This document shows positions 3,172 to 63,606 of a stretch of DNA of 64,000 nucleotides, piece after piece; position 1 is the stretch's first letter; each line of letters opens with the position of its first letter. The stretch spans positions 6,758 through 70,757 of the forward strand of contig JAPOWV010000016.1 of NCBI GenBank assembly GCA_026707445.1, read 5' to 3'. The DNA is from Gammaproteobacteria bacterium. GTDB taxonomy: Bacteria > Pseudomonadota > Gammaproteobacteria > Steroidobacterales > Foliamicaceae. The translations under genes were made by a program, and so were the position numbers. The notes under the pieces are model-generated. The model saw only the letters and a list, made by a program, of their open reading frames with translations, did not search any database and was not told the origin of the DNA.

Positions 3172-3700
3172 GCCGGAACCGCCGGAGAACCGATCGCCGG
3201 AAGCGAAACTGATTCCCATGGGCCGGCTGGGCGCCGCCCTGGGACTGAAGGGCTGGCTCAGGGTGAAGTCCTTTGCCGACCCGCCGGAACAACTTCAGAA
3301 CTACCGTATCTGGAATCTGCTCGTGAACGGACAGTGCAGGGAAATAACGTTGCGGCGCTTGCGGAGCACCCCCCGGGGTTTGGAGTGCCTCCTGGACGGG
3401 ATAGAAACGCGCGATGCGGCGGAAGCGCTGCGCGGCGCTGAAATCCGCGTGAATCGCTCGGACCTGCCGCCGGCAGGCGAGGATGAGTGGTACTGGGCCG
3501 ACCTGGAAGGCCTGGAAGTGCGGAACCTCGATGGCCAGTCCCTGGGCCGGGTTCGCGGCCTGATGGCCACAGGCGCCAATGATGTGCTGATCGTGCAGGG
3601 CGAACGCAGGCGGCTGATCCCCTTCGTTCGCGGCAGCCGGGTGCGCGAGGTCGATCTTCAGGAGCGCCGGCTGATCGTGGACTGGGACCCCGCGGACTGA
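3131..3700 (+). CDS. rimM: Ribosome maturation factor RimM
   Basis: Contains [19 protein letters not shown] and a PRC-barrel-like C-terminus ([17 protein letters not shown]), in the position after rpsP. The start is ambiguous: ATG 3131 overlaps the rpsP tail by 41 nt, and ATG 3218 is the alternative. Confidence 0.85.
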
Positions 3701-7219: not shown

Positions 7220-8473
7220 GTGCACTGGATCGTTCTCGGGCTGCTGGCCGTCCTGGGCGTGCCGCTTTTCGCGGTCATCGCGGGCGGCGCGATGCTGGGC
7301 TACCTGGGCGCGGACATACCGCTTGCCTCCATAGCCGTCGAAATCCTCGGCGTTGCGACCCTGCCCGCACTGGTCGCCATTCCCCTTTTCTGCTTTGCCG
7401 GCTACGTGCTGGCGGAGAGCCCGGCGCCGAAGCTGCTGGTGCGCCTGAGCGAGGCCCTGGTGGGGTGGATGCCTGGGGGGCTGGCGGTCTTCGCACTGGC
7501 CATTTGCGCGCTGTTCACCGCCTTCACGGGCGCATCCGGCATCACGATCATCGCGATGGGCGCCTTGCTTTATCCGGCGCTGAAACAGGCGCGCTACCCG
7601 GAGGGTTTTTCCCTTGGGCTGGTCACGACCGGCGGCAGCCTGGGATTGCTGTTCGCGCCTTCTCTGCCGCTGATTCTCTACGGCGTCGTCTCCGAGACAC
7701 GAATCGACTCGCTGTTCAGGGCCGGCGTGCTGCCCGGCCTGGCCATGATCGTTCTCCTTGCGGCTTACTGCCTGTGGGTCAACCGCAGCGAACGCCGGCC
7801 GCTTTCCAGCTTCGATTTGCGCGAAGTCGCCGGCGCGCTCAGGGCCGCGGGCTGGGAGCTGCCGTTGCCGATCATCGTGCTGGGCGGCATCTATTCCGGC
7901 TACTTCGCGATTTCCGAGGCGGCGGCGGTCACGGCCCTCTACGTCGTGGTCGTCGAAGTGTTCATCCGCCGCGCCATCCCGCTTTCGCGCCTGCCTCTGA
8001 TCATGCGCGATTCGATGACGCTGGTGGGCGGGATACTGCTGATCCTGGCGGTATCGCTGGCGTCCACCAACCTGATGATCGACGCCGAGGTGCCCCAGCG
8101 GCTGCTGGCGGTGGTCGGCGAGGTCGTGAGCGGGCCTGTGACCTTCATGCTGGCCCTGCTGGTCTTCCTGCTGATCCTGGGCGCTTTCCTGGACATCTTC
8201 TCCGCCATCGTCCTGGTCGTGCCGCTGATCCTCCCGGTCGCCGCCCAATTCGGCGTGCACCCGGTCCATCTGGGCATCATTTTCCTGGCGACCATGCAGT
8301 TGGGTTACCTTACGCCTCCCGTGGGCCTCAACCTGTTCATTGCGAGCTATCGGTTCGAGCAGCCGATCGTTCGCGTTTACCTGGCAAGCCTGCCTTTCCT
8401 GCTGGTGCTGATGGCGGCGGTGCTGCTGATCGCATTCTGGCCCTCGCTTTCCCTTTGGATGATCGGAACATGA
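7220..8473 (+). CDS. TRAP transporter large permease (DctM family)
   Basis: GTG at 7220, 5 nt after the dctQ stop, gives VHWIVLGLLAVLGVPLFAVIAGG. Polytopic, about 417 aa, with DctM-like blocks (GASGITIIAMGALLYPAL, GTLGLLFAPSLPLILYG-like, QLGYLTPPVGLNLF). Confidence 0.85.
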   Translation: MHWIVLGLLAVLGVPLFAVIAGGAMLGYLGADIPLASIAVEILGVATLPALVAIPLFCFAGYVLAESPAPKLLVRLSEALVGWMPGGLAVFALAICALFTAFTGASGITIIAMGALLYPALKQARYPEGFSLGLVTTGGSLGLLFAPSLPLILYGVVSETRIDSLFRAGVLPGLAMIVLLAAYCLWVNRSERRPLSSFDLREVAGALRAAGWELPLPIIVLGGIYSGYFAISEAAAVTALYVVVVEVFIRRAIPLSRLPLIMRDSMTLVGGILLILAVSLASTNLMIDAEVPQRLLAVVGEVVSGPVTFMLALLVFLLILGAFLDIFSAIVLVVPLILPVAAQFGVHPVHLGIIFLATMQLGYLTPPVGLNLFIASYRFEQPIVRVYLASLPFLLVLMAAVLLIAFWPSLSLWMIGT

Positions 8474-13733: not shown

Positions 13734-14544
13734 GGCATTTGTCGGAGGGGCCATAGCGGCCGCGGGACTGCGGGGCGCGAGGGCGCATGAACGGCCGGAG
13801 GACAGTGTCCTGTTCGTCCTGGTGCACGGCACCGGTCACGGCGGCTGGTGCTGGAAATTCGTGCGCGACATCCTCGACGAACAGGGGCACCGTGTCTACA
13901 CGCCCACGCTGACCGGCTGCGGCGAGCGCTCGCACCTGCTTCACCCCGACATCGGGCTGGAGCTCCACATTCAGGACATCGTGAACGTGCTCGAATGGGA
14001 AGAACTCGAAAACGTGGTGCTGGTGGGGCACTCCTACGGCGGGCTGGTAATTTCCGGCGTGGCTGACCGGGCCAAGGAGCGCTTGCGCCACCTTGTCTAT
14101 CTGGATGCAATCATTCCCGGAGACGGAGACAGCCTGCTTTCGGCGCGCCGCGACGCCAGCGCCGAGGAAGTAGCTGCCAACAAGGAGATCTGGGGCCGAA
14201 TTGCGCCAGACGGCGAGTATGTCATGGGCTTCTCCGCCACGATGTTCGGAATTCCCCCGGAGTCATCCAACGCGGCCTGGGTGGAGCGCAGACTCACACC
14301 GCACCCGATCAAGAGCTGGCTGGACCCGGTGAAGTTCGAGAACGGCGGCGAGGAAGGCGTGCCCTGCACTTTCATCGAGTGCACCGAACCCGCCATGCCC
14401 GGCGCCGGCCTCAGCGCCCACGCCCAACACGCCAAAGACCATCCGGGCTGGCGCTACGTGGAGCTCAAGACCGGCCACGACGCCATGGTGACGGAACCGC
14501 AGGCCTGCGCCGACCTGTTCCTGGCCGCCGCCCGCTCCTCCTGA
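13708..14544 (+). CDS. Alpha/beta hydrolase (esterase, SABP2/MeSA-esterase-like) with a twin-arginine signal
   Basis: Tat motif TRRAFVGGAIAAAGL. Oxyanion-hole region VLVHGTGHGGWCW and nucleophile elbow VGHSYGG, with a C-terminal GHDAMVTEP. Confidence 0.8.
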   Translation: MNMSKATRRAFVGGAIAAAGLRGARAHERPEDSVLFVLVHGTGHGGWCWKFVRDILDEQGHRVYTPTLTGCGERSHLLHPDIGLELHIQDIVNVLEWEELENVVLVGHSYGGLVISGVADRAKERLRHLVYLDAIIPGDGDSLLSARRDASAEEVAANKEIWGRIAPDGEYVMGFSATMFGIPPESSNAAWVERRLTPHPIKSWLDPVKFENGGEEGVPCTFIECTEPAMPGAGLSAHAQHAKDHPGWRYVELKTGHDAMVTEPQACADLFLAAARSS

Positions 14545-14546
14545 GC

Positions 14547-15296
14547 CTGGATACGATAACGTTCGTTCTCGTTCACGGCACCGGCCACGGCGGCTGGTGC
14601 TGGAAGTTCGTGCGTGGGATCCTGGAAGGGCAGGGACATCGCGTCTACACGCCCACGCTTACGGGCTGCGGCGAGCGCTCGCACCTGCTCCATCCGGACA
14701 TCGGCCTGGAGACGCACATTCAGGACATCGTGAACGTGCTCGAGTGGGAAGAACTGAACGACGTGGTGCTCGTGGGTCATTCCTACGGCGGATGCGTCGT
14801 TTCCGGTGTTGCGGACCGGGCCAAGGACCGGCTGCGGCACCTGGTGTACCTGGACACGGTCATTCTGAGTCATGGCGAAAGCCTGGTCGGCTCCCGCCGG
14901 GAGATGAGCGATGCCGAGGGGGATGCGGATATCGAGCGTCGCCGGAGCATGGCGCCGGACGGCAAGTACATCGTGGCGCGCTCCGGAGAGTTCTACGGAA
15001 TTCCGCCCGAGCCCGCGGACGTCCTCGAGTGGGTGAACCGGAGGCTGACTCCGCATCCGCTGAAAAGCTGGCTGGAGCCGGTGAAGTTCGAGAACGGCGG
15101 CGAGCAAGGCGTGCCCAGGACCTTCATCCGCTGCACCGACCCCGAAATGCCCTTCAGCGGAATAAGGGACCACGCGATGTTCGCGAAGGAGCACCCCCAA
15201 TGGCGGTATGAGGAACTTGCGACCGGCCACGACGCCATGGTGACCGAGCCGCAGGCCTGCGCCGACCTGTTCCTGGCCGCCGCGCAATCTTCGTAA
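14547..15296 (+). CDS. Alpha/beta hydrolase, tandem paralog of 13708-14544 lacking a signal peptide and a canonical start codon
   Basis: Colinear with the mature part of the upstream gene: FVLVHGTGHGGWCWKF, VGHSYGG, and GHDAMVTEPQACADLFLAAA, whose coding DNA is near-identical. The homologous region begins 3 nt after the upstream stop in another frame. The only in-frame candidate starts are CTG 14547 and the distant GTG 14379. Confidence 0.6.
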   Translation: MDTITFVLVHGTGHGGWCWKFVRGILEGQGHRVYTPTLTGCGERSHLLHPDIGLETHIQDIVNVLEWEELNDVVLVGHSYGGCVVSGVADRAKDRLRHLVYLDTVILSHGESLVGSRREMSDAEGDADIERRRSMAPDGKYIVARSGEFYGIPPEPADVLEWVNRRLTPHPLKSWLEPVKFENGGEQGVPRTFIRCTDPEMPFSGIRDHAMFAKEHPQWRYEELATGHDAMVTEPQACADLFLAAAQSS

Positions 15297-25619: not shown

Positions 25620-25638
25620 GCAACGGCGCTCCGATGCC

Positions 25639-25746
25639 GCCTTCTATTCGCATCCCTCTTCCGGGAGACGCATGAATACATCCCTGTAGCTTGGTTCCGC
25701 CATCCCTGGCTCACACACTCCCGGAAGAGGGATGCGAATAGAAGGC
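25639..25746 (+). repeat. Structured repeat, copy A: 29-bp perfect inverted repeat around a 50-nt loop, with a conserved 70-nt core (25658-25727) shared with copy B
   Basis: The left arm gccttctattcgcatccctcttccgggag (25639-25667) is the exact reverse complement of the right arm (25718-25746). The loop is acgcatgaatacatccctgtagcttggttccgccatccctggctcacaca. It starts 19 nt after the fba stop, between convergent genes. Confidence 0.85.
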
Positions 25747-25771
25747 TTACGGGGTGTCCTCGCTCCCGGGA

Positions 25772-37633: not shown

Positions 37634-39685
37634 ATGCACAAGTTTTCGAACAGTCGGTCGCCGTTGGCTCTGTTGGTCCTGGCGGCCGTCCTGCTTGCCG
37701 GCTGCGGGGATGACGCCGGGCGGCCGTTCGAGGCGCGCCCGGTTATAGAGGATCCGGGCTGGCCTACGTACGCGGGCGCGGAAGGGGGAACGCGCTATTC
37801 GCCGCTGAACCAGATCAACCGCTCCAATGTGGGCGACCTGGAAATCGCATGGATTTACCACACCGGTCACCTCGAACGAGCGCCGCATCTTTACGGAGCC
37901 GTGGGGTTTCAGACGACCCCGATACTCTTGCCGGAGGAGGCAGGGGGCCATCTGGTGCTGTGCGATCCGCTCAATCGGATCATCGCGCTGGGTCCGGCGA
38001 CCGGGAAGGAGCGGTGGGAGTTTGATCCCGCGATTGATCTAACCCCCTATGCCGGGCGTTTCAATTGCCGCGGCGTGACCTACTGGCGCGATCCGGAGGC
38101 CGCCGGGACGGACGCTTGCGCGCACCGTCTCATTCTGGCCACCAACGATCGCCGCCTCGTCGCCGTAGATGCACGCACCGGCCAGCCGTGCGCGGGATTC
38201 GGCGAAGGCGGGTTTGTCGACGTCACGCCGATCATTCTCGAATTGCAGCCGGCCAATCAGCTCCTGACGATGCAGCTGAACTCGCCGGCCGCGGTGGTCA
38301 ACGGCGTTATCGTCGTCGGCGGGACCGCCGACAAGTTCAGGGACGCCAGCTCCATGAACGGCGCAGTGCGCGCGTTCAGCGCCCGCACCGGCGAGCACCT
38401 GTGGACGTTCGACACGCTGATCCGGGAGCCGGCGGACGACCCGACGAGCAGCGCCTGGCACGTGGGCGGCGCCAACGCCTGGATCAATTTTTCGTGGGAC
38501 AGCGAGCACGACTTGGTGTTCATTCCCACGGCCAGTCCCGCGCCAAATTTCTACGGGGGCAAGCGCCCCGGAGATAACCTCTACGCCAATTCCGTCATCG
38601 TGCTGCGCGCCGCCACCGGGGAACTGGTCTGGCACTACCAGGTACTGCATCACGACCTGTGGGACTGGGACCTGCCCACCAACCCCATTCTGGCGGAGAT
38701 CAGCCGCGATGGCGAGAAGGTCCCGGTTGCCATGCAACTGACCAAGCAGGGCATGATCTTCACCTTCCACCGCTATACGGGCGAGCCTTTCTTCGAGATC
38801 GAGGAGCGTCCGGTTCCCACGGACGGTTTGCCGGAGGACGACGTTTCGCCCACCCAGCCGTTTCCGGTCAAACCGCCGCCGCTGGTCAAGCACGGGATCG
38901 GGCCGGAGGATGCCTGGGGGCTTACGCCCTACGACCGGAACAAGTGCCGCGAATTGATCGAGTCGATGCGCTACGGGCCGATTTACACACCGCCCACCAC
39001 GGAGTCCACGCTGATGATGCCGAACGTGGGCGGAGGCATGAACTGGGGTGGCGGCGCCTTCGATCCCGCCAGCAATATTCTCGTTACGCCGGTGGGTCAA
39101 TCTCCTTACAGGCTCCGCCTGATTCCCAACGAGGAGATCGACCCGGTAGCGGGCAGGCTGCCGACGGCTGGCCTGCCGATCGGTCCGCCCGGATACATTG
39201 AAGGCACCGACTACGGTCTGGAGCAGGGCCCGTTGTTTTCGCCCTTCATGATGCCGTGCACGGCGCCGCCCTGGGCCAAGCTCGTTGCAGTCGACATGGC
39301 CGCGGGCGAGATACTGTGGGAACAGCCGCTGGGATTGGTCGACAAGCTGGCGCCGGTGCCCATACCATTTCGCTGGGGCACGCCGTACGCCGGTGGACCG
39401 ATCGCAACCGGGGGCGGCCTGGTCTTTATCGGCGCGACCGCCGATGAGCGCTTCCGCGCCTACGACACCGAGACCGGCGAGCTGCTGTGGGAGTTCGAAG
39501 GCCCCACGTCCGCCAACGCCACGCCCATGACCTACATGGCCGGCGGCAGGCAATACGTGGTGGTCGCGACCGGCGGTCACAACTGGGTCTATCCGTACAA
39601 GAAGGGCGATTCCGTCGTGGCCTACAGCCTCCCCGGGGGCGAGGGCGTCTCGCCCCGGAGCGAGGGCGTCCCGCCCTCAGAATGA
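37634..39685 (+). CDS. PQQ-dependent dehydrogenase (quinoprotein glucose/alcohol dehydrogenase family), lipoprotein
   Basis: Lipobox LLAGCG. An eight-bladed propeller-type repeat pattern with W-motifs (GERWEFD, GEHLWTFD, GELVWHYQ, GEILWEQP, GELLWEFE) and HHDLWDWD. Confidence 0.8.
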   Translation: MHKFSNSRSPLALLVLAAVLLAGCGDDAGRPFEARPVIEDPGWPTYAGAEGGTRYSPLNQINRSNVGDLEIAWIYHTGHLERAPHLYGAVGFQTTPILLPEEAGGHLVLCDPLNRIIALGPATGKERWEFDPAIDLTPYAGRFNCRGVTYWRDPEAAGTDACAHRLILATNDRRLVAVDARTGQPCAGFGEGGFVDVTPIILELQPANQLLTMQLNSPAAVVNGVIVVGGTADKFRDASSMNGAVRAFSARTGEHLWTFDTLIREPADDPTSSAWHVGGANAWINFSWDSEHDLVFIPTASPAPNFYGGKRPGDNLYANSVIVLRAATGELVWHYQVLHHDLWDWDLPTNPILAEISRDGEKVPVAMQLTKQGMIFTFHRYTGEPFFEIEERPVPTDGLPEDDVSPTQPFPVKPPPLVKHGIGPEDAWGLTPYDRNKCRELIESMRYGPIYTPPTTESTLMMPNVGGGMNWGGGAFDPASNILVTPVGQSPYRLRLIPNEEIDPVAGRLPTAGLPIGPPGYIEGTDYGLEQGPLFSPFMMPCTAPPWAKLVAVDMAAGEILWEQPLGLVDKLAPVPIPFRWGTPYAGGPIATGGGLVFIGATADERFRAYDTETGELLWEFEGPTSANATPMTYMAGGRQYVVVATGGHNWVYPYKKGDSVVAYSLPGGEGVSPRSEGVPPSE

Positions 39686-46310: not shown

Positions 46311-46340
46311 CTCAGGGCGGGGCCGCTTCGATCCCGCCGT

Positions 46341-46859
46341 TCAGAAATTGAGGGCGAGGGTGCGCGGTTGACCGAATGAGGGCAGGCTGATGAGGTGCAG
46401 TTGTCCCGGACCGAATTCCGCCAGGTTGAGTGCGGCGGGGTCCCATTCGGCCAGCAGCGCCGACGCCAGGTTCGTGCCGGCCACGATGATCACGATTTTT
46501 CCACGGTGCTGCCTGGCCAGCCCGCGCGCGAAGGCGGCGGGGTCCTCGATCAGCACGTCCGTAATAGGCTGCTCAAGGCTTTCGGAAAGCACGCGAACCG
46601 TCTCACGTTCGGGCTCTCCGCCGGCGCTGAAGATACCCGCCAGCAGATCGGGAGCGGCGAGGTTGCCCGCAAGGCGGCCGAGTGCCTCGGCGCGGGCCCG
46701 ACCGTTGTCGCTGAGCGAAGCGGAGTCGCCGTCCTGACGCTCAGCGGATGTCACGAGCAGCACCGTAGTGGTGGCTTCGCTGCCCTGAAGTTGCCAGACG
46801 ACGATCAGCACGCCCGCCAGGAAAACGGCTGCCAGCAGGTTGCGGTAGCGCGGGCGCAA
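46341..46859 (-). CDS. Hypothetical membrane-anchored protein (~172 aa)
   Basis: Only the 3' third of the 467-aa minus-strand ORF looks real. A TTG at 46859 gives RPRYRNLLAAVFLAGVLIVVWQL (a TM helix) followed by a globular domain. The upstream part is the mirror image of the repeat gene on the + strand. The start is uncertain. Confidence 0.4.
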   Translation of the reverse strand: MRPRYRNLLAAVFLAGVLIVVWQLQGSEATTTVLLVTSAERQDGDSASLSDNGRARAEALGRLAGNLAAPDLLAGIFSAGGEPERETVRVLSESLEQPITDVLIEDPAAFARGLARQHRGKIVIIVAGTNLASALLAEWDPAALNLAEFGPGQLHLISLPSFGQPRTLALNF

Positions 46860-47244: not shown

Positions 47245-48516
47245 ATGAAAGCAACAGTGCGTATTTCAGGTTTTTGTGTGGCGCTTTCCGCGGTGCTGGT
47301 TTTGGCGAGTTGCCAGACGACGGGCGGCGTATCGTCGCCGTCCGGCGGACCCCCGGTTTCGATGCCCTCGCCCAGCGGCAGTTCGGGTTCCTCCGGGGGC
47401 TCGCAAGGTTCCATGGGCGGTTCCCAGGGGTCTATGGGCGGCTCCCAGGGGTCCATGGGCGGCTCCCAGGGGTCGATGGGCGGTTCGCAAGGCTCCATGG
47501 GCTCCTCCGGCGGTTCTCGGGGCTCCATGGGTTCAACCGGCGGTTCGCGGGGTTCGATGGGCGGCTCGATGGGTTCCTCCGGGGGTTCCATGGGCTCCAT
47601 GGGCGGCTCGATGGGTTCCTCCGGTGGATCACGTGGTTCCATGAACGGTTCGATGGGATCCGCCGGTGGCTCCATGGGAACACCAGGCGGTTCTCGCGGT
47701 TCGATGGGATCGCAAGGCGGCGCCCAGGGTTCCATGGGTTCCATGGGCTCCTCCGGCGGTTCGGCCGACGGACCTTCGGGCCGGCCGGGCGGTTCCGGGG
47801 GTCAACAGGGCGGTTCCGGGGGTCAACAGGGCGGTTCCGGGGGTCAACAGGGCGGTTCCGGGGGTCAACAGGGCGGTTCCGGGGGTCAACAGGGCGGTTC
47901 CGGGGGTCAACAGGGCGGTTCCGGGGGTCAACAGGCCGGTTCCACGGGAGTCAGCGGTGGCTTCGGAGGCGGGCAGGGCAGCGAGCCCGGCGGCAGAGGA
48001 GGTGCAGGCGGCACCCAGGGCTCGGGCGACCTCGATGGAATCCTGCGTGAATCCATGGAGGGTTACGACCGCGAAATTGCCCGTGAGCGCGGCGCCATGG
48101 CGTCGGCCGGGCAGGGTTCCGCCGCCGGTTCCGGAGGCGCGGGCGGAATGATCGGCGAGCCGGGCGGCTCCGGCGGGGCGATGGTGACCATTCCCAACGC
48201 CGCCGGCGGAGGCATTGGCGGTAGCGGTCAGGGCCCGGGCAGCAAATCGGCCGGCAGCAACGCAGGCGGAAGCAGCACCGGAAGCGGCGGCGGCTCCGGC
48301 GGAGGCGAAGGACAAGGCGGGCCGCTCGAAGACGGTACGGCGGGCGAGCAGCCGGAGACGAAGATTGAAATTCCGGAAGACATTCAGGAGGCTACCGGCA
48401 AGGAGGACCAGGTGGCGCGGCAGATCCGCGAAGCGGCGGAGCAGGAAGAAGACCCCCGCATACGCGAGGCATTGTGGGACGAATATCGCAAGCACATGGG
48501 GCTGAAAACAAGATGA
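47245..48516 (+). CDS. Lipoprotein with extensive Gly/Ser/Met and Gly/Ser/Gln repeats and a conserved-looking charged C-terminus
   Basis: Signal peptide plus lipobox LASC. Residues ~50-170 are GSQGSMG/GSMGGS-type repeats, with Met spaced mostly 4-9 residues apart. Residues 182-230 are seven exact GGSGGQQ units. The C-terminus is EDIQEATGKEDQVARQIREAAEQEEDPRIREALWDEYRKHMG. Confidence 0.75.
   Translation: MKATVRISGFCVALSAVLVLASCQTTGGVSSPSGGPPVSMPSPSGSSGSSGGSQGSMGGSQGSMGGSQGSMGGSQGSMGGSQGSMGSSGGSRGSMGSTGGSRGSMGGSMGSSGGSMGSMGGSMGSSGGSRGSMNGSMGSAGGSMGTPGGSRGSMGSQGGAQGSMGSMGSSGGSADGPSGRPGGSGGQQGGSGGQQGGSGGQQGGSGGQQGGSGGQQGGSGGQQGGSGGQQAGSTGVSGGFGGGQGSEPGGRGGAGGTQGSGDLDGILRESMEGYDREIARERGAMASAGQGSAAGSGGAGGMIGEPGGSGGAMVTIPNAAGGGIGGSGQGPGSKSAGSNAGGSSTGSGGGSGGGEGQGGPLEDGTAGEQPETKIEIPEDIQEATGKEDQVARQIREAAEQEEDPRIREALWDEYRKHMGLKTR
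47788..47934 (+). repeat. Perfect in-frame tandem repeat, 7 x 21 bp (ggcggttccgggggtcaacag)
   Basis: Seven identical 21-nt units read directly from the sequence. They encode (GGSGGQQ)x7 inside the lipoprotein gene. Confidence 0.95.
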
Positions 48517-56464: not shown

Positions 56465-58672
56465 TTAAACGGCGGCTTTGACCAGTGTCGGGCGGGGTTT
56501 GTCTTCCGCGGCGGCAGGGTCCCCGGTGTCGGGGAACAGTTCGCCGGGCATGGCCGGCCGCGACTCCCGCAGGGCGCTGCCCCGGCCGGAAAGGCTGGGG
56601 TTGGTCATAAACCAGGTGTGGGCGCTGAAATCGCCCGATTGATGGTCAAGCCGGCGGTAGGCGCCGTCGGGTTCGAGTTGCCAGCTCTGCATCACGTCGA
56701 AGCGGTTCGCCATCAGGACCTGCTCCACGAGCTGCCGCTTGACCGTTTCGTTCTCGATCGGCACCAGCGTCTCCACTCGATGGTGCAGGTTGCGGGGCAT
56801 CCAGTCGGCGGACGATACGTAAACTTTGCTCTCGGTGGAAGGAAGCCGGTGGCCGGCGCCGAAACACATGACGCGGGAGTGCTCCAGGAACCTGCCGACC
56901 ATGCTGCGCACCTGGATGTTCTCCGACATGCCGGGCACGCCCGGGCGCAGGCAGCAAATGCCCCGAACGTAGAGTTCGATCCGCACGCCGGCCTGGCTCG
57001 CGTGGTAGAGACAGTCGATGATCTCGGGGTCCACCAGTGAGTTGAGTTTGGCCCAGATCTCCGCCGGACGCCCGGCGCGGGCATGGGCGACTTCGTCTTC
57101 GATCAGCTCGACCAGGGTGTTCTTCAGTTCGGCGGGCGCATAAACCAGCTTTTCCATGTCCTCCGGAGTCGCGTAGCCTGTCATGTAATTGAAAAGGCGC
57201 GCGGTATCGCGCCCCAGCGCCGCGTCGCAGGTGAAGAAGCTGAGGTCCGAGTAAACGCGCGCGTTGACCGGATGGTAGTTGCCGGTGCCGAAATGGGTGT
57301 AGGTCCGCAGTTTTCCCGCTTCCCTGCGCACCACCAGCGAGACTTTGGCGTGGGTCTTGAGTTCCATGAAGCCGTAGACCACCTGCACGCCGGCGCGCTC
57401 CATCTCCTGTGCCCAGCGGATGTTCGCCGCTTCGTCGAAGCGCGCCCGAAGCTCGACCATGGCGGTGACCAGCTTGCCGGCCTCGGCGGCGGCGATCAGC
57501 GCCTCGACGATCGGCGAGTCCTCGGAAGTGCGGTAGAAGGTCTGCTTGATCGCCACGACCGCCGGGTCCTCGGTGGCGCGGCGCAGGAATTGCACGACCA
57601 CGTCGAAGCTCTCGTACGGATGCTGCACGACGAAGTCCTTGGCCCGTATCGCGGCGAGGATGTCGCCGCCATATTCGCGGACCCGTTCGGGGAAGCGCAC
57701 GTTGAGCGGCTCGTGCTGCAGGTCGCGGCGCTGGTCCGTGATGATCTGCTTGATGTCCGCCAGCCCCAGCATGCCGTCGATGTTGAAGACGTGCGCGTGC
57801 GAGGCATTGAACGCCTTGAGCACGAACCGGCGGAAGTTCTTCGGCATGCCGGCCGCCACCTCCACGCGGATGACGTTGCCCCTGCGCCGCCGAAGCAGGG
57901 CGCTCTCGAAGGTACGCACCAGGTCTTCGGCTTCCTCGTCGATTTCAAGGTCGCTGTCACGGCTGATGCGGAAGATGCCGTGGCCCAGGATCTTCATGCC
58001 GGGGAACAGCAGCCTGAAGTTGCGGGCGATGATTTCCTCGACGGCGACGAAGCGCAGGGCCTTGCCGGGGACCCGCACGAACCGCTCGATCTGGGGCGGC
58101 ACCAGCACCAGGCCGTTGATCTCGTGCTTGTCCGCGGGCCGCATCAGCCGCAGCACGTACACCAGGCAGCCGGTCTGAATGAAGGGGAAGGGGTGCGCCG
58201 TGTCGACCGCCTGGGGGGTCAGTACCGGAAACAACTGGTTTTCGAACCATCGCGACAGCCACTCGCGGGACCGCTCGCCCAGTTCCTCGGGTTTTACCAC
58301 CGCCACTCCGGCATCGCGGCATTCGGCCAGCAATTGTGCGCTGCGCCTGGATTGGGCCTTGAGGAGCTTCTTTACCTGTTCACGTATGGCTTCGAGTTGT
58401 TCGCCGGGGGTCAGTCCGTCATCGCTGGTCTTCGTGACGCCCGCAGCCACCTGCGCCATGAGGCCGGCCGCGCGCACCATGTAGAACTCGTCGAGGTTGC
58501 TGGCCGAGATGGACAGAAACCGCACGCGCTCCAGCAGCGGGTGGTTCTCGTTGCCGGCTTCCTCCAGCACCCGCGTGTTGAATTCCAGCCAGGACAGTTC
58601 GCGGTTGATCAGGCGGCCGGCGACGCGTTCCGCCTCGCTGAGCGCCCGTGGCTTGCCGGACGCAGGCGTCAT
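56465..58672 (-). CDS. ppk: Polyphosphate kinase 1
   Basis: RLINRELSWLEFNTRVLEEA, FLSISASNLDEFYMVR, and two PLD-like HKD regions (TGNYHPVNARVYSDL; FLEHSRV). The start is ATG 58672, or 58732 for the longer ORF. Confidence 0.93.
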   Translation of the reverse strand: MTPASGKPRALSEAERVAGRLINRELSWLEFNTRVLEEAGNENHPLLERVRFLSISASNLDEFYMVRAAGLMAQVAAGVTKTSDDGLTPGEQLEAIREQVKKLLKAQSRRSAQLLAECRDAGVAVVKPEELGERSREWLSRWFENQLFPVLTPQAVDTAHPFPFIQTGCLVYVLRLMRPADKHEINGLVLVPPQIERFVRVPGKALRFVAVEEIIARNFRLLFPGMKILGHGIFRISRDSDLEIDEEAEDLVRTFESALLRRRRGNVIRVEVAAGMPKNFRRFVLKAFNASHAHVFNIDGMLGLADIKQIITDQRRDLQHEPLNVRFPERVREYGGDILAAIRAKDFVVQHPYESFDVVVQFLRRATEDPAVVAIKQTFYRTSEDSPIVEALIAAAEAGKLVTAMVELRARFDEAANIRWAQEMERAGVQVVYGFMELKTHAKVSLVVRREAGKLRTYTHFGTGNYHPVNARVYSDLSFFTCDAALGRDTARLFNYMTGYATPEDMEKLVYAPAELKNTLVELIEDEVAHARAGRPAEIWAKLNSLVDPEIIDCLYHASQAGVRIELYVRGICCLRPGVPGMSENIQVRSMVGRFLEHSRVMCFGAGHRLPSTESKVYVSSADWMPRNLHHRVETLVPIENETVKRQLVEQVLMANRFDVMQSWQLEPDGAYRRLDHQSGDFSAHTWFMTNPSLSGRGSALRESRPAMPGELFPDTGDPAAAEDKPRPTLVKAAV

Positions 58673-58762
58673 TTGCGTGTTCCGGGATGGCGTGGAATGT
58701 GCCCCATGAACGGAGTAGCATACAGGAGTCATGAGTATTCACGCAGTCCCGGGAGCGAGCGC

Positions 58763-59299
58763 ATGAAGCGCCTGTGGCTGCTGCGGCATGCCAAGGCGGG
58801 GCCGTATTCCGTCGACGATTTCGAGCGGGCGCTGGCCCCCAGGGGCCGGAAGAACGCGCCGGCGATGGGTGAGAAACTGGCGGCCGTGGGATGCGCTCCC
58901 GAGAGGATCCTCTGCTCCGCCGGGCGGAGGGCGGTGGAGACGATGTGCGGTGTCCTGCCCAGCCTTCCCGCCGATCTCGGCATCAAGGTCACGCGAAGGC
59001 TGTACACCTTCAGCCCGGGGGCCGTGTTGCAGTGTCTGCGCGAACTGCCGGGGGATACCGGCGACGTCATGGTGGTGGGCCATAACCCGGCACTGCAGGA
59101 ACTGGCGCTGTACCTGGCAGGCCGGGGCGAAGAGGAAGCTTTCGCGGTGCTCCATGGCAAGTTTCCCACCTGCGCCGTGGCCGAGCTGGAGTTTCCTGAG
59201 TCGCCGCACGCGACGGACTGGGACGAAGGCAGCGCATATCTTCGGCGCGTACTGACGCCCCGCCCCCCGCGGTACCTGCGGGCTCCCCTGGTTGACTAG
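58763..59299 (+). CDS. Histidine phosphatase superfamily protein, SixA-like phosphohistidine phosphatase
   Basis: ATG at 58763 gives MKRLWLLRHAKAG (the RHA/G motif)...ERALAPRGRK...MVVGHNPALQEL. It is only the last 178 codons of the 738-aa track ORF, whose remainder is antisense to ppk. Confidence 0.8.
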   Translation: MKRLWLLRHAKAGPYSVDDFERALAPRGRKNAPAMGEKLAAVGCAPERILCSAGRRAVETMCGVLPSLPADLGIKVTRRLYTFSPGAVLQCLRELPGDTGDVMVVGHNPALQELALYLAGRGEEEAFAVLHGKFPTCAVAELEFPESPHATDWDEGSAYLRRVLTPRPPRYLRAPLVD

Positions 59300-59309
59300 C
59301 GAGCAATCG

Positions 59310-60107
59310 ATGAGAAGACAGTTACCGGTCGAATTCGTTTTTCAGCTTTTCTCGCTGTTCCTGTCGGTGATCCTGGTACACGCCATGTACGTGGCCTGGA
59401 TCCGCCCGCAGGCCAACGCGGTCATGGAAGAGCAGCGGATACAGCTGGAACAGGACGCCGACTACGTGCCCGAACGCTCCCTGTACGTGATCGTGCGCGA
59501 TTTCGAGCAGGAGGCCTGCCTGATCCTGGCGCTTTGGGCGCTGGCGATCATGGGCTACAAGGCCCGCGGGGCGCTGCGCGAACGCTCGCTGCTGCAGCGC
59601 GATCTGCTGCCGCTGGCGGAAGGGGTTCGCATCCTGCCGGAGGACACCCGCGAGCACGCGCGCCAATTGCGTGCGCTGCCGGAATCGCAACAGCGCCTGC
59701 TGTTGCCGCGGGTATTGCTCAGCGCGCTGCAGCGATTCGGCGCGACGGGCAATGTGCAGGACGTCTCTTCGGCCACCCAGACGCTGGTCAACGCTGAGGC
59801 CGAGCGGCTGGAATCGGAACTGTCCATGATCCGGTATATCGCATGGGCGATACCCTCGATCGGCTTTATCGGTACCGTGCGCGGGATCGGCCAGGCGCTG
59901 ACGCTCGCCTACCGGGCCGTGGAAGGCGACATCAGCGGCGTGACCGAGAGCCTGGGCGTGGCCTTCAATTCAACCTTCTTTGCCCTGCTGGTCAGCATTT
60001 TCATCATGTTTCTGGTCCACCAGCTTCAATTGTTGCAGGAGCGACTGGTCTTCGAGACCTCGGATTACTGCGACGAACGGCTGATCCGCCGCCTGCAGGG
60101 CGACTGA
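59310..60107 (+). CDS. MotA/TolQ/ExbB-family proton channel protein
   Basis: Four predicted TM helices. The C-terminal signature is LSMIRYIAWAIPSIGFIGTVRGIGQAL...GVAFNSTFFALLVSIFIMFLVHQL. The start is ATG 59310 (TTG 59292 is possible), 10 nt after the sixA-like stop. Confidence 0.8.
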   Translation: MRRQLPVEFVFQLFSLFLSVILVHAMYVAWIRPQANAVMEEQRIQLEQDADYVPERSLYVIVRDFEQEACLILALWALAIMGYKARGALRERSLLQRDLLPLAEGVRILPEDTREHARQLRALPESQQRLLLPRVLLSALQRFGATGNVQDVSSATQTLVNAEAERLESELSMIRYIAWAIPSIGFIGTVRGIGQALTLAYRAVEGDISGVTESLGVAFNSTFFALLVSIFIMFLVHQLQLLQERLVFETSDYCDERLIRRLQGD

Positions 60108-60126: not shown

Positions 60127-61539
60127 ATGGCGCTGGTCGCGCTGGAGGTCAACGGAGCGGCGCTGGTAGGCGCTACCGCCGCCGGCGTGCTGTTCAACGA
60201 GCCGGGCGTTGCGCTGGTGCAAAAGCGGCGCGTGGCGTTCGGGCGCGCAGCGGTCGAAGAGGCGCGACGGGACCCCGCAAGCGGTTACCGGAATTACTGG
60301 GAACTGCTGTCGGATGACCCCCTGCCCAGGCCGGCGCGGGGATTTCGCAGCTATGCGGACCTGGCCCACGGGCATATGCAGGGGCTTTGGAAGCGCTTCC
60401 GGGATGCGGTGGGAGACATAAGCGGTGTGGTCCTGGTCATTCCCGCCGGCGTCGCGGAAGACCGCCTTGCGCTGCTGCTGGGGATCGCCGAGGAAGCCGG
60501 ACTGCCCGTTGCCGGGCTGGTTGAAAGCGGAGTGGCCGCGGTGCGTGGCGCCGCCGCGGGCCGCGCCTGCCTGCACATTGAAGCAACCGCCGAACGACTG
60601 GCGGTATCCCGGCTCATCCCGCATGACGGGCGAATCCGGCGCGAGGAGATCCTGTTCGACGGCCGTCCCGGATTGCGTCACCTGCGGGCGGCGATGACCG
60701 CACACGTGGCCGGACGGTTCGTGGCGGGTTCCCGCTTTGACCCGCTGGACCTGCCCGCCACCGAGCAGGAGCTGGCCGGGCAACTCGACTCGTGGCTTGA
60801 GGCGGTCCTGGCCGGCGGCGAACTCGCGATCGAACTTGAAGCGGCGCCGGTGACCGCTACCGCGGTCCTGGGCCGCGATGACTTCCTTGCTTCGATCGAA
60901 CGCTTGCTGGGGGCCCCGGGAAATCGTCTGCGATCCTGGTGCACGGGTCCGGGGGCCGCGGACGTATACCTGTCGGGGACGCTTGCAGAGGTTCCCGGCT
61001 GCGCCGAGGTGTTTGCCCGCCTGCTCGCCGCCGAGGTCCAGGTCCTGCCGGCGGGCGCTGCGGCGCTGGGCGCGCTGGAGCGTTTCGTTCCGGTGGTCGG
61101 CGCGGGGGATCGATATGTGCTGCTCAAGTCCCTGCCGGCCGTGGACTCGGCGGGCGGCCCGTACGGGACACGCACTGCCCGGCCGGATGCCGGCGCCTCG
61201 CCGGCCGGCGGAGACGGGGAAACGGGAGAACGGACGCCGACGCATGTCGTGTTCGGTGGCCGGGCCTGGCGCATCGGCGCCGAAGGCCTGCATCTGGGAT
61301 CGTCGCCGCAACCCGGGGGCCTGTCGATCGTGCTCTCGCCGGAAGGCGGGATTTCGCGTAACCACTGCACCGTGGTGCTGGAGAACGGGCAGGCGGTGTT
61401 GCATGACCACAGCCGTTACGGAACCAGCCTGAACGGCGCGCCGGTGGCCGATTCGGCGCCACTGCGCGGCGGCGACGTGGTGGGCGTGGGGCCGCTGGAG
61501 TTCCTGATCACGCGCGAGGTGGGCGGCGATGGCCCGTAG
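60127..61539 (+). CDS. Degenerate Hsp70/actin-fold protein with a C-terminal FHA domain
   Basis: The N-terminal ~330 aa follow the Hsp70-type pattern (VVLVIPAGVAEDRLALLLGIAEEAGLPVAGLVESGVAAV; DVYLSGTLAEVPG), but the phosphate-1 DxG motif is replaced (VALEVNGAAL). The C-terminus is a canonical FHA (GISRNHCTVV, HDHSRYGTSLNGAPV, LRGGDVVGVGPLEFLI). Confidence 0.7.
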   Translation: MALVALEVNGAALVGATAAGVLFNEPGVALVQKRRVAFGRAAVEEARRDPASGYRNYWELLSDDPLPRPARGFRSYADLAHGHMQGLWKRFRDAVGDISGVVLVIPAGVAEDRLALLLGIAEEAGLPVAGLVESGVAAVRGAAAGRACLHIEATAERLAVSRLIPHDGRIRREEILFDGRPGLRHLRAAMTAHVAGRFVAGSRFDPLDLPATEQELAGQLDSWLEAVLAGGELAIELEAAPVTATAVLGRDDFLASIERLLGAPGNRLRSWCTGPGAADVYLSGTLAEVPGCAEVFARLLAAEVQVLPAGAAALGALERFVPVVGAGDRYVLLKSLPAVDSAGGPYGTRTARPDAGASPAGGDGETGERTPTHVVFGGRAWRIGAEGLHLGSSPQPGGLSIVLSPEGGISRNHCTVVLENGQAVLHDHSRYGTSLNGAPVADSAPLRGGDVVGVGPLEFLITREVGGDGP

Positions 61540-62626
61540 GCGCTTTCACGTATTCAGCATGTCGTTTCTGGACATCATTTCCTGCGGCTTCGGCGCGGTC
61601 GTGCTGTTCTTCGTGATCATCAACGCCCAGGTGCGCCTGCGGGCCGATGCCGAGCGCATCGATCTGCTCAGCGAATCCACACGGCTGGAAGAGGAGGTCC
61701 TGGAAGGGCGAAAGGACCTGCTGCAGTTACGCGGCGAGCGCGACACGCTCGACGAGCGCCGCGCCACGGCAATCGAGGAGTTGAGAAAGCTGCGCGAACG
61801 CCTTGCCGCCTTGCTGGCGGAGCTGGCGGAATACGAGCGCCTGGGGACGCAAAGCCAGGAGTCGGTCGAGCGGCTTCGGGTCGACGTGGACCGGCTCAGG
61901 GAAATGCAGGCGGAACTTGAGGCGCGGGTCGCCGAGGCGGAGGAAGGAACGGGGCAGCGGGTGCGTGGCTTTGAAGGCGAGGGCGCGCGGCAATACCTGA
62001 CGGGCATGCAGATGGGTGGCGACCGCGTAATGATTCTCGTGGATGCGTCCGCCAGCATGCTGGGGCGCACCTATATCGACGTCTTGCGGTTTCGCCTGAT
62101 GGACGAGGAACTCAAGCCCCGGGCTCCCAAATGGGTCCAGGTCGTGAATTCGGTGGACTGGATCACCACGCGTCTGGAGCCGCAGCAGAGATTTCAGGTC
62201 TACATCTTCGGGGTGGAGCACAGAAGCATCCTCGAGGGCACGGACGGCGAGTGGCTGAGCGTGGCCGACGGGGCGCGGGTAGGCGAAGCGATCGAGGCCC
62301 TGCGCAATTTTGCGCCGAGGGGCGGGACCAGCCTGCATGCGGCGATGCGCGCCATCCGCGCCATGCAGCCGCTGCCGGACAATGTGTACCTGTTGACCGA
62401 CGGACTGCCGACGCAGGGCGCCAGTCCTCCCTCGCGGGTCGGATGGGTGGATACGCGGGCGCGCGAGCGGTTCTTTACCCGCGCGGTGCGCGACCTGCCC
62501 TCGGGGATTCCGGTCAATGTGCTGTTCTACCCGATGGACGGGGACCCGGCCGCGACCGGCTACTACTGGCTGATGGCTTCGCAGTCCCGGGGATCGTTCG
62601 TCAGCGTTTCCCGCGACTGGCCCTGA
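61529..62626 (+). CDS. ExbD/TolR/MotB-like single-pass membrane protein fused to a periplasmic coiled coil and a vWA domain
   Basis: 11-nt overlap with the upstream gene. A basic N-terminus plus a TM helix with a lone Asp (MARRRFHVFSMSFLDIISCGFGAVVLFFVI). About 100 aa of E/R/L-rich heptad-like sequence follow. The vWA domain has a MIDAS (DRVMILVDASASM ... GGTSL ... VYLLTDG). Confidence 0.7.
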   Translation: MARRRFHVFSMSFLDIISCGFGAVVLFFVIINAQVRLRADAERIDLLSESTRLEEEVLEGRKDLLQLRGERDTLDERRATAIEELRKLRERLAALLAELAEYERLGTQSQESVERLRVDVDRLREMQAELEARVAEAEEGTGQRVRGFEGEGARQYLTGMQMGGDRVMILVDASASMLGRTYIDVLRFRLMDEELKPRAPKWVQVVNSVDWITTRLEPQQRFQVYIFGVEHRSILEGTDGEWLSVADGARVGEAIEALRNFAPRGGTSLHAAMRAIRAMQPLPDNVYLLTDGLPTQGASPPSRVGWVDTRARERFFTRAVRDLPSGIPVNVLFYPMDGDPAATGYYWLMASQSRGSFVSVSRDWP

Positions 62627-62639
62627 ATACTCGCCGGCG

Positions 62640-62751
62640 CGCTGGCGCTGCTGCACGGCCCTTCCGGGAGACGCATAAATCCATCCATGGAGCTTGGTTC
62701 CGCCATCCCTGGCTCACACACTCCCTGAAGGGCCGTGCAGCAGCGCCAGCG
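62640..62751 (+). repeat. Structured repeat, copy B: 31-bp inverted repeat (1 mismatch) around a 50-nt loop, with a conserved 70-nt core (62661-62730) shared with copy A
   Basis: The left arm cgctggcgctgctgcacggcccttccgggag (62640-62670) pairs with the right arm 62721-62751, except for one C/T opposition (62665/62726). The loop is acgcataaatccatccatggagcttggttccgccatccctggctcacaca. It starts 13 nt after the vWA-gene stop. Confidence 0.85.
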
Positions 62752-62814
62752 AACATTGCAAGCTGTTCCATGCGGGGCCGCCGTAGCGAAAACTGCGGGA
62801 TAATGCGCGGCGGT

Positions 62815-63606
62815 ATGGACTTGCAGTTGAACGAAAAGGTTGCGCTGATTACCGGAGCCACCGGTGGTTTGGGTGCAGCCTGCGCGCGTGAACTGGCTCG
62901 CGAGGGTGCAATGTTGTTTCTCTGCGCCCGCACGGAGAGCGATCTTGGGGAACTGGCGGGGGAACTGAGCAGGGCCGGTTGCGAAAAGGTGCGCTGGCAC
63001 GCGGCGGACCTGACTTCCCCCGAGGCGGCGGGCAGGGTTGCAGCTTCCGCGGAAGAGGCCTTCGGCAGGGTGGACGTGCTGGTGAACTGCGCCGGGGCGT
63101 CGGCAGGCGGTCTGTTCTGGGAAATACCGGATTCGGCCTGGGAGGACAGCATGGCGCTCAAGTTCATGGCCACCATCCGGATGATCCGCGCGGTGCTGCC
63201 CGGAATGATCGAGCGGCGCTACGGGCGAATCGTGACCCTGGTGGGCAATTCGGGGCGCGAACCGGACCCCCGCATGCTGCCGGGCGCCGCGGCGAACGCC
63301 GGTTTGCTCGCGGTCACCACCGGACTGGCGCGGGAGGTGGCCGAACACGGCGTGGTCATCAACGCCGTCAATCCCGGTCCCACGAGGACGGGCCGCTGGG
63401 AGGGCATGATGGAATCGTTCGCCGCCCGCAGCGGGAAGACGCCCGGGGAGGAAGAACAGAGTTTCCTCGATGCGATTCCCCAGAAGAGGTTGGGAACGAC
63501 CGGCGAAATCGCCCGGCTGGTTACATTTCTGGCGAGCGACGCCGCCCCGCACGTTACCGGGCGCTCGATTACGGCCGACGGCGGGGCTGCCCGCGCAATT
63601 CTTTGA
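62815..63606 (+). CDS. Short-chain dehydrogenase/reductase (SDR) family oxidoreductase
   Basis: ALITGATGGLGAACA (the TGxxxGxG motif), NCAG, and a C-terminal ITADGG. The start is ATG 62815 or 62803. Confidence 0.85.
   Translation: MDLQLNEKVALITGATGGLGAACARELAREGAMLFLCARTESDLGELAGELSRAGCEKVRWHAADLTSPEAAGRVAASAEEAFGRVDVLVNCAGASAGGLFWEIPDSAWEDSMALKFMATIRMIRAVLPGMIERRYGRIVTLVGNSGREPDPRMLPGAAANAGLLAVTTGLAREVAEHGVVINAVNPGPTRTGRWEGMMESFAARSGKTPGEEEQSFLDAIPQKRLGTTGEIARLVTFLASDAAPHVTGRSITADGGAARAIL

Follow-up and report, generated by a model that had tools for sequence, protein, structure and literature searches.

Comparative analysis places a post-operon hairpin in a dispersed family of probably mobile palindromic elements of Candidatus Foliamicus-like Gammaproteobacteria

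We analysed a 64,000-nucleotide stretch of contig JAPOWV010000016.1 from a Gammaproteobacteria bacterium (assembly GCA_026707445.1; the window, meaning the whole stretch at its full length), which carries a long hairpin, copy B, at positions 62640-62751. Sequence comparison with related genomes shows that copy B is a type-B member of a dispersed, multi-copy family of 110-150-bp palindromic elements found in Candidatus Foliamicus-like Gammaproteobacteria, with rearranged relatives in Pseudoxanthomonas and Marinobacter. Comparison of junctions shows that it is a recent insertion, placed in the spacer between the stop codon of a von Willebrand factor A (vWA)-like gene and the leader of a short-chain dehydrogenase/reductase (SDR) gene after this lineage had separated from a relative with a 99%-identical vWA protein. 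It also shows that the whole unit, own stem and flank motifs included, is what genomes gain or lose. We favour, with a probability of about 0.6, a reading of the family as mobile palindromes akin to repetitive extragenic palindromic (REP) sequences, bacterial interspersed mosaic elements (BIMEs) and REP doublets forming hairpins (REPINs), with effects on transcript 3' ends being secondary, rather than as a terminator built into an operon.

The geometry proposed by an earlier, sequence-only reading of the window is correct. The arms, 31 nt each and 97% complementary, occupy 62640-62670 and 62721-62751 with 50 nt between them, and direct reading of the sequence confirms the lone, uncompensated mismatch of C62665 against T62726. 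The parts of the unit are listed below, L-numbers here and throughout designating loci from related genomes that were compared with the window.

62629..62639, + strand: 5' flank of the inserted type-B unit, ending in ACTCGCCGGCG, delimited by junction comparison with L075-L078
62640..62670, + strand: 5' arm of the long stem P1, 31 nt, with a copy-specific outer 21 nt and the inner CTTCCGGGAG found family-wide, supported by covariation
62671..62720, + strand: conserved apical loop, type 1, 50 nt
62680..62691, + strand: mini-hairpin P2a, TCCA-TCCA-TGGA (CAUGGAUG on the opposite strand), compensatory with respect to copy A and predicted by RNAalifold
62702..62713, + strand: mini-hairpin P2b, GCCA-TCCC-TGGC, within the most conserved stretch GGTTCCGCCATCCCTGGCTC (CAGGGAUG on the opposite strand)
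62721..62751, + strand: 3' arm of P1, 31 nt, carrying the mismatched T62726
62752..62771, + strand: type-B 3' flank AACATTGCAAGCTGTTCCAT (family consensus AAnnnnGCAAGtnGTTCC), part of the inserted block

The predicted fold of the hairpin has a stability of about -81 kcal/mol, and its folding energy departs from that of shuffled sequences by z = -9.1 and -8.5 on the two strands, none of 200 shuffles being as good. The 70-nt core (62661-62730) is 93% identical to positions 25658-25727 of a second element, copy A, and these two copies are the sole hits of a family covariance model in the window with filters off, the next hit having E = 0.06. As initially described, the outer 21 nt of the copy B stem are copy-specific, and each outer stem occurs in the window only at its own hairpin. 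The four loop substitutions reported between the two copies are present (loop positions 7, 11, 17 and 20); what had been missed is that positions 11 and 20 form a compensatory pair in a 4-bp mini-hairpin, which reads TCCA-TCCA-TGGA in copy B and TACA-TCCC-TGTA in copy A. The remaining two substitutions fall in the tetraloop of this mini-hairpin and in a linker.

An exact search of a collection of species-representative genomes with the loop 20-mer GGTTCCGCCATCCCTGGCTC returned 68 loci. About 52 are canonical copies, distributed over about a dozen uncultured Gammaproteobacteria that include Candidatus Foliamicus (order Candidatus Foliamicales) and the bins SB0673_bin_2, CAR4_bin_12 and RHO1_bin_71. 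Ten of the 68 loci correspond to a rearranged variant in two Pseudoxanthomonas genomes, one is in Marinobacter, one is in a groundwater gammaproteobacterium and four are chance coding matches. The window itself is 88-91% identical to contigs of SB0673_bin_2. The covariance model, built from 40 copies, detects 79 copies in about 600 kb sampled, with up to 6-7 per 8-kb locus. At the gathering threshold, Rfam reports only tRNA in the window and the variant loci, and a relaxed search adds merely sub-threshold hits to miRNA precursors, which are typical of any long hairpin. A phage or plasmid origin was considered and rejected, the core being absent from IMG/VR and from phage and plasmid collections. 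Our literature search found no paper on this repeat family, which is apparently undescribed so far.

Across all copies, the stems measure 28-31 bp with zero or one mismatch, and the loops 50, 49, 41 or 40 nt. Stem sequence varies between copies, both arms changing together, and the constant part is the loop-proximal collar GGGAG/CTCCC; the 5' arm is pyrimidine-rich in 74 of the 79 copies. P1 pairs with changes on both sides number 28 of 31 in the unfitted alignment of 40 copies and 31 of 31 in the 79-copy alignment. Paired P1 cells reach 94.7%, as compared with 43-52% in slid controls, and no shuffle out of 500 attains the observed values. RNAalifold, applied to the unfitted alignment, independently predicts P1, P2a and P2b. 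P2a shows two pairs with double changes across the family. P2b is invariant among close copies and covaries in divergent ones, its stem taking the forms GCCA/TGGC, GGCA/TGCC, CGGCGACA/TGTCGCCG, CTGGGGC/GCCCCAG and CGAAGGCA/TGCCTTCG. The two conserved mini-hairpins lie in direct orientation, and each combines a covarying stem with an invariant apex, TCC(N)TG. Strong covariation among homologous copies thus bears out the initial description of copy B as a structured repeat.

The Pseudoxanthomonas variant retains the two modules, GGTTCC-GCCA-TCCC-TGGC-TCCAAC and ..CA-TCCA-TG.., in reversed order and within a different covarying long stem; the stem of the second module is 7-8 bp long and covaries as well. 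Since the modules are kept although they are permuted, we interpret the small hairpins as the conserved core of the element and the long stem as a scaffold. In this variant (L002, L003, L012, L013, L016, L034 and L042), hexanucleotide microsatellites of variable length, (GCAACA/GCAACC/GCGACA)n, precede the element and a hairpin, CCCCTCTCCC-ACC-GGGAGAGGGG, which is conserved, follows it; the conserved unit amounts to about 210 nt. In the groundwater gammaproteobacterium (L054, 6359-6470), two inverted copies of the conserved motif (CCATGGATGGCGGAA ... TTCCGCCATCCCTGG) flank a separate small hairpin, which is a different architecture made from the same module.

Two flank types accompany the hairpins. 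Type A, represented by copy A, has GGCGCTTCGATCCC on the 5' side and T(A)CGG on the 3' side. Type B, represented by copy B, has GGCTGGCG and AAnnnnGCAAGtnGTTCC, and other type-B copies begin with GGCTGGCG directly followed by CGCTG(G/A). The type-B 3' flank is common to L004, L024, L052, L035 and L066 and is absent at empty sites. Extra partial copies, comprising the 5' arm, GGGAG and ACGCATG, stand directly upstream of complete elements in L018 (about 3650-3700), L068 (about 7800-7840), L053, L029 and L017, and the type-A 5' motif GCGCTTCGATCC resembles both the loop start ACGCATGAATCC and the tRNA T-arm (GGTTCGATCC). Taken together, the partial copies and this likeness suggest template-switching partial duplications or an origin next to a tRNA-like site.

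Copy B is located just past the stop codon of the last gene of a MotA/FHA/vWA-like module, with 13 nt from stop to hairpin, and the next co-directional gene is the SDR gene, whose start at 62815 we confirmed; both statements agree with the initial placement. The module genes are the following.

59292-60107: MotA_ExbB, confirmed
60127-61539: FHA protein, confirmed
61529-62626: 365-aa vWA-like protein, upstream of copy B

The vWA label originally given to the third gene has to be softened to vWA-like, as the Pfam VWA match is sub-threshold only (E about 5e-5, 24 bits versus a cut-off of 27), with close homologues annotated as VWA-domain proteins.

We compared the vWA-SDR junction in eight relatives whose vWA proteins are 83-99% identical. 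None of the eight carries the element, and the relative with the 99%-identical protein is among them. The inserted block spans about 62629-62775 in the window. Its left junction coincides with the sequence GGCGCGCTG, formed by the 5' flank and the first stem bases of copy B, which in relatives corresponds to the last hicB codons and stop at this site and which is also the generic type-B 5' flank (last hicB codons plus stop, RLAR*). This coincidence may reflect flank capture, targeting or homology-assisted insertion, and comparison of copy B with the L075-L077 junctions reveals no clean target-site duplication. The junctions mark the spacer as a hot spot for insertions, one that in relatives has also taken up a hicAB toxin-antitoxin pair: a hicA/hicB pair is found in L074 and L078, hicB 3' remnants (..GGCGCGCTGA) in L072, L075, L076, L077 and the window (62634-62648), and almost nothing in two other relatives. 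We rejected the idea that type-B copies ride with hicAB, as no hicB lies beside other type-B copies and the stretch that blastn-short finds shared between the copy B 5' flank region and L004 and L035 is only 14-15 nt.

The SDR leader of the window (about 62800-62812) lacks 13 nt (CGCCGGGAGA..) of the TGCGGGATAATGCGCGCGCCGGGAG conserved in L071-L078. The missing stretch includes the GGGAG Shine-Dalgarno sequence present in all eight relatives, so translation initiation of the SDR gene may differ in this genome.

The sequence-only reading held that copy B probably marks the 3' end of the module's transcript. In favour of a Rho-independent terminator or 3'-end signal belonging to the MotA/FHA/vWA module, a very stable, GC-rich hairpin starts 13 nt past the last stop codon and precedes a conserved SDR leader with its GATAAT box. 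As an evolved property, this role is not borne out by the comparison. The element is missing from the junction of all eight relatives with an intact module, so any effect on 3' ends is not a property of that module. Intrinsic terminators have stems of 5-20 bp, loops of 3-8 nt and a T-tract, whereas copy B has a 31-bp stem, a 50-nt loop and no T-run after the stem, and a consensus scan found no intrinsic-terminator signature at either window copy. Moreover, elements of the same type are also found, in both orientations, in tight gaps between co-directional genes, where 12-30 nt separate them from either neighbour. We therefore regard a dedicated terminator as very unlikely.

Further window features, together with their counterparts in related genomes, document gain, loss and persistence of the elements.

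14546..14547, no strand: empty site, between whose bases L061 (734-875) carries a 142-bp element
25625..25750, + strand: copy A, a type-A unit with 5' motif GGCGCTCCGATGCC, 50-nt loop and 3' flank TTAC
46321..46342, + strand: remnant of a third element, comprising the 5' motif CCGCTTCGATCCCGCC and the first 7 nt of the 5' arm (GCCGTTC)

The 142-bp block of L061 consists of the 5' motif, a hairpin with its own stem and the 3' flank, lies 2 nt past a stop codon and shows no target-site duplication when the filled site is compared with the empty one. L040, from a related genome, has a complete element where the window keeps only the remnant. Copy A has a perfect 29-bp stem (25639-25667/25718-25746), lies between convergent genes for a class-I FBP aldolase and a cytosine/purine permease, and has an orthologous copy in L032 that is identical over the whole element, with 91-92% identical flanks. 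Matches to the type-A 5' motif at 39055 and 46323 were examined as possible extra copies; the former is a chance coding match and the latter the genuine remnant.

L009 and L061, which come from different loci of one genome, hold sister copies whose stems differ by one compensated pair. As sister copies share their stem, the stem moves together with the element instead of being formed from the target; formation from the target is likewise rejected at the L061/window empty site, where the whole stem and the flank motifs are absent. We also rejected a role of the stem as a spacer or guide, since none of the variable stems recurs elsewhere in the window and a 20-mer of the copy B stem gave only two chance coding matches (..RLALLHGL..) in viral contigs. 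Within a subfamily the stems are visibly related, which identifies them as diverged copies and not as captured sequences.

Ten of 11 adjacent pairs are tail-to-tail doublets, and these occur in convergent, co-directional and divergent gene contexts. The doublet at L014 7290-7543 is inverted in place with respect to the one at L036 3786-4040, with collinear flanks and 97% identity after inverting; it comprises one type-2 and one type-1 element and is bounded by inverted copies of the 5' flank motif. L036 carries an extra truncated 5' arm upstream of the doublet.

Inversion in place between two genomes, along with hairpins that vary in sequence, conserve structure and lie just past stop codons, would also be compatible with an integron attC-like or other structure-specific site, the folded single strand of which is read by a tyrosine recombinase. 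The likeness to attC extends to the location at the 3' ends of open reading frames (ORFs) and to a plausible recognition as folded single-stranded DNA. On inspection, however, the stem bases bear no R''/R' boxes (RYYYAAC/GTTRRRY) and the elements show no R/L boxes, the copies are scattered among housekeeping genes instead of forming cassette arrays, and the loop is the conserved part here, unlike in attC, where the terminal structure is variable. This possibility appears extremely remote to us.

Comparison of orthologous loci informs on how the stems evolve. L011/L026 differ by three double and one single stem changes and by none of 40 loop positions, with flanks 95% identical. L043/L044 display eight double and 1-3 single changes, six changes over 50 loop positions (two of them compensatory) and flanks about 79% identical (BLAST-aligned). 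One double and 0-2 single stem changes separate L050 from L062, four single and no double changes separate L030 from L067 in a model-based alignment, and copy A and L032 show no double, single or loop change with flanks 92% identical. L017:4822 and L048:2469 differ by nine double and two single stem changes and one of 41 loop positions, with flanks 95% identical; in this case, the resident copy may have been replaced by a paralogue. At orthologous loci, stem pairs change at about the rate of the flanks or faster and are nearly always compensated, and the loop changes several-fold more slowly.

Among 1558 stem pairs, 28 are mismatched and none is G.T on the loop strand; in the 79-copy alignment, G-U accounts for about 0.5% of cells. 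The 28 mismatches are of the types C.A (8), C.T (7), C.C (5), T.C (3), T.T (3), A.C (1) and A.A (1), the loop strand never having G, and 11 of the 28 cluster at the CCGG adjoining the collar; these mismatch statistics are weak because many mismatches are shared by descent. We infer that the pattern of change fits a DNA palindrome kept perfect by arm-to-arm copying. Propagation restricted to perfect copies could produce this pattern too, and an RNA helix that evolves through wobble intermediates would not typically show it.

These properties invite comparison with known dispersed palindromes. REPINs consist of two conserved REP ends (16-mers) in inverted orientation, separated by a less conserved spacer (Bertels and Rainey 2011, PMC3116915). 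Each REP begins with a conserved GTAG/GTGG, and the repeats flank a RAYT (Y1/HUH transposase) gene that is present once per genome. Like REP/BIME and REPIN-RAYT elements (PMC3116915), the elements described here are short, non-coding, extragenic, high-copy hairpin palindromes kept by compensatory changes (79 intergenic copies, with 31 of 31 pairs covarying). They share with REPINs the inverted doublets, mosaics, remnants and singlets, vertical persistence combined with copying within genomes, and the lack of target-site duplication. In contrast to REPINs, the centre is conserved, the arms are variable and the conserved hairpins are direct instead of inverted; in contrast to REP sequences, the unit is three times as large and copy B has no GTAG at either stem base. 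Many type-A copies do have GGC abutting TAC at just one of their two ends, which gives GTAG when the opposite strand is read.

Foldback miniature inverted-repeat transposable elements (MITEs) such as Correia (Neisseria), ERIC/IRU and RUP have conserved inverted repeats derived from an insertion sequence and a target-site duplication (TA for Correia); Correia elements additionally contain a central IHF site and are processed by RNase III. The resemblance to the present family lies in the size of about 100-150 bp, the position at gene ends and the long RNA duplex in read-through transcripts. The arms of the present elements differ between copies, however, and two clean junctions are free of duplication. 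No conserved terminal inverted repeats and no parent insertion sequence were seen; what recurs is the short 5' flank motif, of which only doublets carry inverted copies at both ends. Because defining features of both the REP/REPIN and the MITE classes fail, we place the family among the dispersed palindromic repeats, as a variant of that kind.

Several observations weigh against the mobile-palindrome reading. Over the 540 kb examined around the elements, their neighbours include no recurrent protein family, and no transposase-like or RAYT (Y1/HUH) gene lies beside any copy. The genes enclosed by two elements are ordinary metabolic ones (SDR, nitrilase-like, ABC ATPase, AccD and MsrP-like). Copy B shows no GTAG, the elements have neither a conserved terminal inverted repeat nor a target-site duplication, and a conserved centre with variable arms is the reverse of REPINs and MITEs, whose conserved ends bind the enzyme. 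Concerted arm evolution could also result from strong selection for pairing, without templated repair. The loop changes about 3-fold more slowly than the flanks in place at orthologous loci, and the bias of solitary copies relative to gene orientation (34 vs 16) exceeds the GC-skew bias (33 vs 19). Conservation of the loop in place and the orientation bias hint at a strand-specific constraint, probably at the RNA level, which would not be expected of purely selfish DNA. Replication-coupled orientation as for IS200/IS605 was rejected, as the association with GC skew is weak (p = 0.07) and below that with the upstream gene.

Under the mobile-palindrome reading that we prefer, the element would be a non-autonomous mobile element, similar in kind to REP, BIME and REPIN sequences, and an enzyme whose gene lies elsewhere would copy it. 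The twin, like-oriented mini-hairpins would constitute a recognition module that is read in single-stranded nucleic acid, and the long palindrome a sequence-independent scaffold that displays the loop by folding into a hairpin on single-stranded DNA or into a cruciform. The arms would be kept complementary mainly at the DNA level, through templated correction of one arm, loss of imperfect copies or both. When co-transcribed with the upstream gene, the element would form a 30-bp RNA duplex. In this way copy B may affect mRNA 3' ends, the predicted duplex blocking exonucleases and so protecting the end, or being cut by RNase III; RNase III and Hfq are both encoded in these genomes. Such effects would be a side effect or a later co-option, the element not acting as a Rho-independent terminator.

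A related scenario gives the RNA a larger part: the family would spread as DNA and be kept for a role of the loop-strand duplex in the stability or processing of mRNA 3' ends, which would block exonucleases, be cleaved by RNase III or bind a protein. The position of the copies argues for it, since most start 0-50 nt past a stop codon (median 32 nt). According to gene calls that are crude (GC3-based), the loop strand is sense with respect to the upstream gene in 49 vs 23 cases for all copies (p = 0.003) and in 34 vs 16 for solitary ones (p = 0.015), and convergent intergenic regions outnumber divergent ones (24 vs 9 for all copies, 16 vs 7 for solitary ones). Conservation of the loop in place, the presence of an RNase III gene in these genomes and a P2a closing pair that is G-U on the loop strand in several independent copies point in the same direction. 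On the other hand, the long stem is almost devoid of G-U and changes at about the flank rate or faster, which is unusual for selected RNA helices, and copy B is dispensable, as its absence from all eight relatives attests. About a third of the copies have the opposite orientation or lie in divergent regions, doublets always hold both orientations and the orientation counts themselves depend on the crude gene calls. We consider such domestication possible, though clearly less probable than not.

The strand opposite the loop strand displays CA(N)GGA at both hairpin apices in 79 of 79 copies (CAGGGA 80, CAUGGA 57, CAGGA 16, CAAGGA 4 and CACGGA 1), with a GGA-to-GGA spacing of 19-25 nt (mode 22). 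The A located 5' of (N)GGA never changes, and U, C and G all occur immediately 3' of GGA. Bridging of two sites by a CsrA dimer takes place over distances of 10-63 nt, a range that the two CA(N)GGA hairpins of each element, about 20 nt apart, would suit. These features raise the idea of a twin CsrA/RsmA-binding module on the opposite strand, through which the family would scatter high-affinity Csr sites over the genome as regulatory inserts or as a distributed sponge. The covarying stems with invariant apices, the one-sided variation as in A(N)GGA(N) and the retention of both modules in permuted order in Pseudoxanthomonas are consistent with this idea. The CsrA consensus obtained by systematic evolution of ligands by exponential enrichment, RUACARGGAUGU, places GGA in a hairpin loop, with ACA and GGA invariant (PMC4347634). 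Copy A reads UACAGGGAUGU, matching 11 of its 12 positions, and the full ACA is present in some copies only, for example in P2a of copy A. The likeness to the GGA hairpins of CsrB, RsmY and RsmZ (PMC4347634) consists of a GGA at the apex of a short hairpin, after CA, in at least two hairpins about 20 nt apart; it is a likeness in sequence, the elements are not small RNA genes and the strand bearing the motif is in most cases not the mRNA strand.

The match to CsrA sites was noticed after the fact. Such sites lie in transcripts, typically in 5' leaders where they overlap the Shine-Dalgarno sequence or in small RNAs, and the GGA strand of copy B is antisense to both flanking genes. More generally, the UCC strand is usually co-oriented with the upstream gene (34 vs 16), and in about 25 of 52 cases a co-oriented gene precedes the GGA strand. 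No promoter-like site was found, and we found no paper linking CsrA to dispersed repeats. An extra opposite-strand helix of copy A (GUGUGUGA/UCAUGCG with G-U pairs) was rejected, as it is not conserved and is broken by the common CCAACA loop variant. We are doubtful that the apices bind CsrA/RsmA. Xanthomonas RsmU, an mRNA-derived small RNA, was considered and is unrelated; to our knowledge, Rsm antagonist RNAs are poorly known in Xanthomonas, a relative of Pseudoxanthomonas.

An equally speculative extension would make the family a kind of inside-out REPIN, in which a pair of protein-recognition hairpins is the cargo of a sequence-free, self-correcting 30-bp stem and, if the pair provides CsrA/RsmA sites on one strand, transposition would rewire or buffer the Csr/Rsm network, that of Pseudoxanthomonas included. 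In a second version, which the data would still accommodate, a single-strand DNA transposase would act on loops extruded from a cruciform and recognise the hairpins as ends.

Dispersed palindromic repeats (REP, BIME, REPIN and Correia) are among the least understood features of bacterial genomes, and this family reverses their usual logic, with free ends and a central hairpin loop that stays constant across distant Gammaproteobacteria, even with permuted modules. Its copies offer unusually clean natural data on the upkeep of long palindromes, where selection on RNA has to be told from arm-to-arm correction at the DNA level. For annotation, copy B illustrates that a stable post-operon hairpin can mimic a dedicated terminator and yet be a recent mobile insertion. 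Should the CA(N)GGA apices truly bind CsrA/RsmA, the family would be the first mobile element to distribute sites for a global post-transcriptional regulator. The architecture of the family and the mode of evolution of its stems are unusual enough to merit follow-up.

Other features of the window were observed in the course of this work. The L061 element is inserted exactly between the counterparts of two tandem paralogous genes, which in the window occupy 13812-15292 with a period of about 750 bp and 78-83% identity; their product, with an N-terminus ..ITFVLVHGTGHGGWCW, looks like an alpha/beta hydrolase. Upstream of MotA, two long ORFs overlap on opposite strands (56465-58732 on the - strand and 57083-59299 on the + strand). 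For the + strand ORF, which encodes 738 aa, Pfam gives no hit at E <= 1e-5; the GC3-based caller preferred the - strand ORF. Finally, positions 47377-47990 contain a long in-frame array of 21-nt (and 30-nt) repeats rich in GGTTCC/ATGGGC, which would encode a low-complexity protein segment rich in Gly, Ser, Met and Gln.

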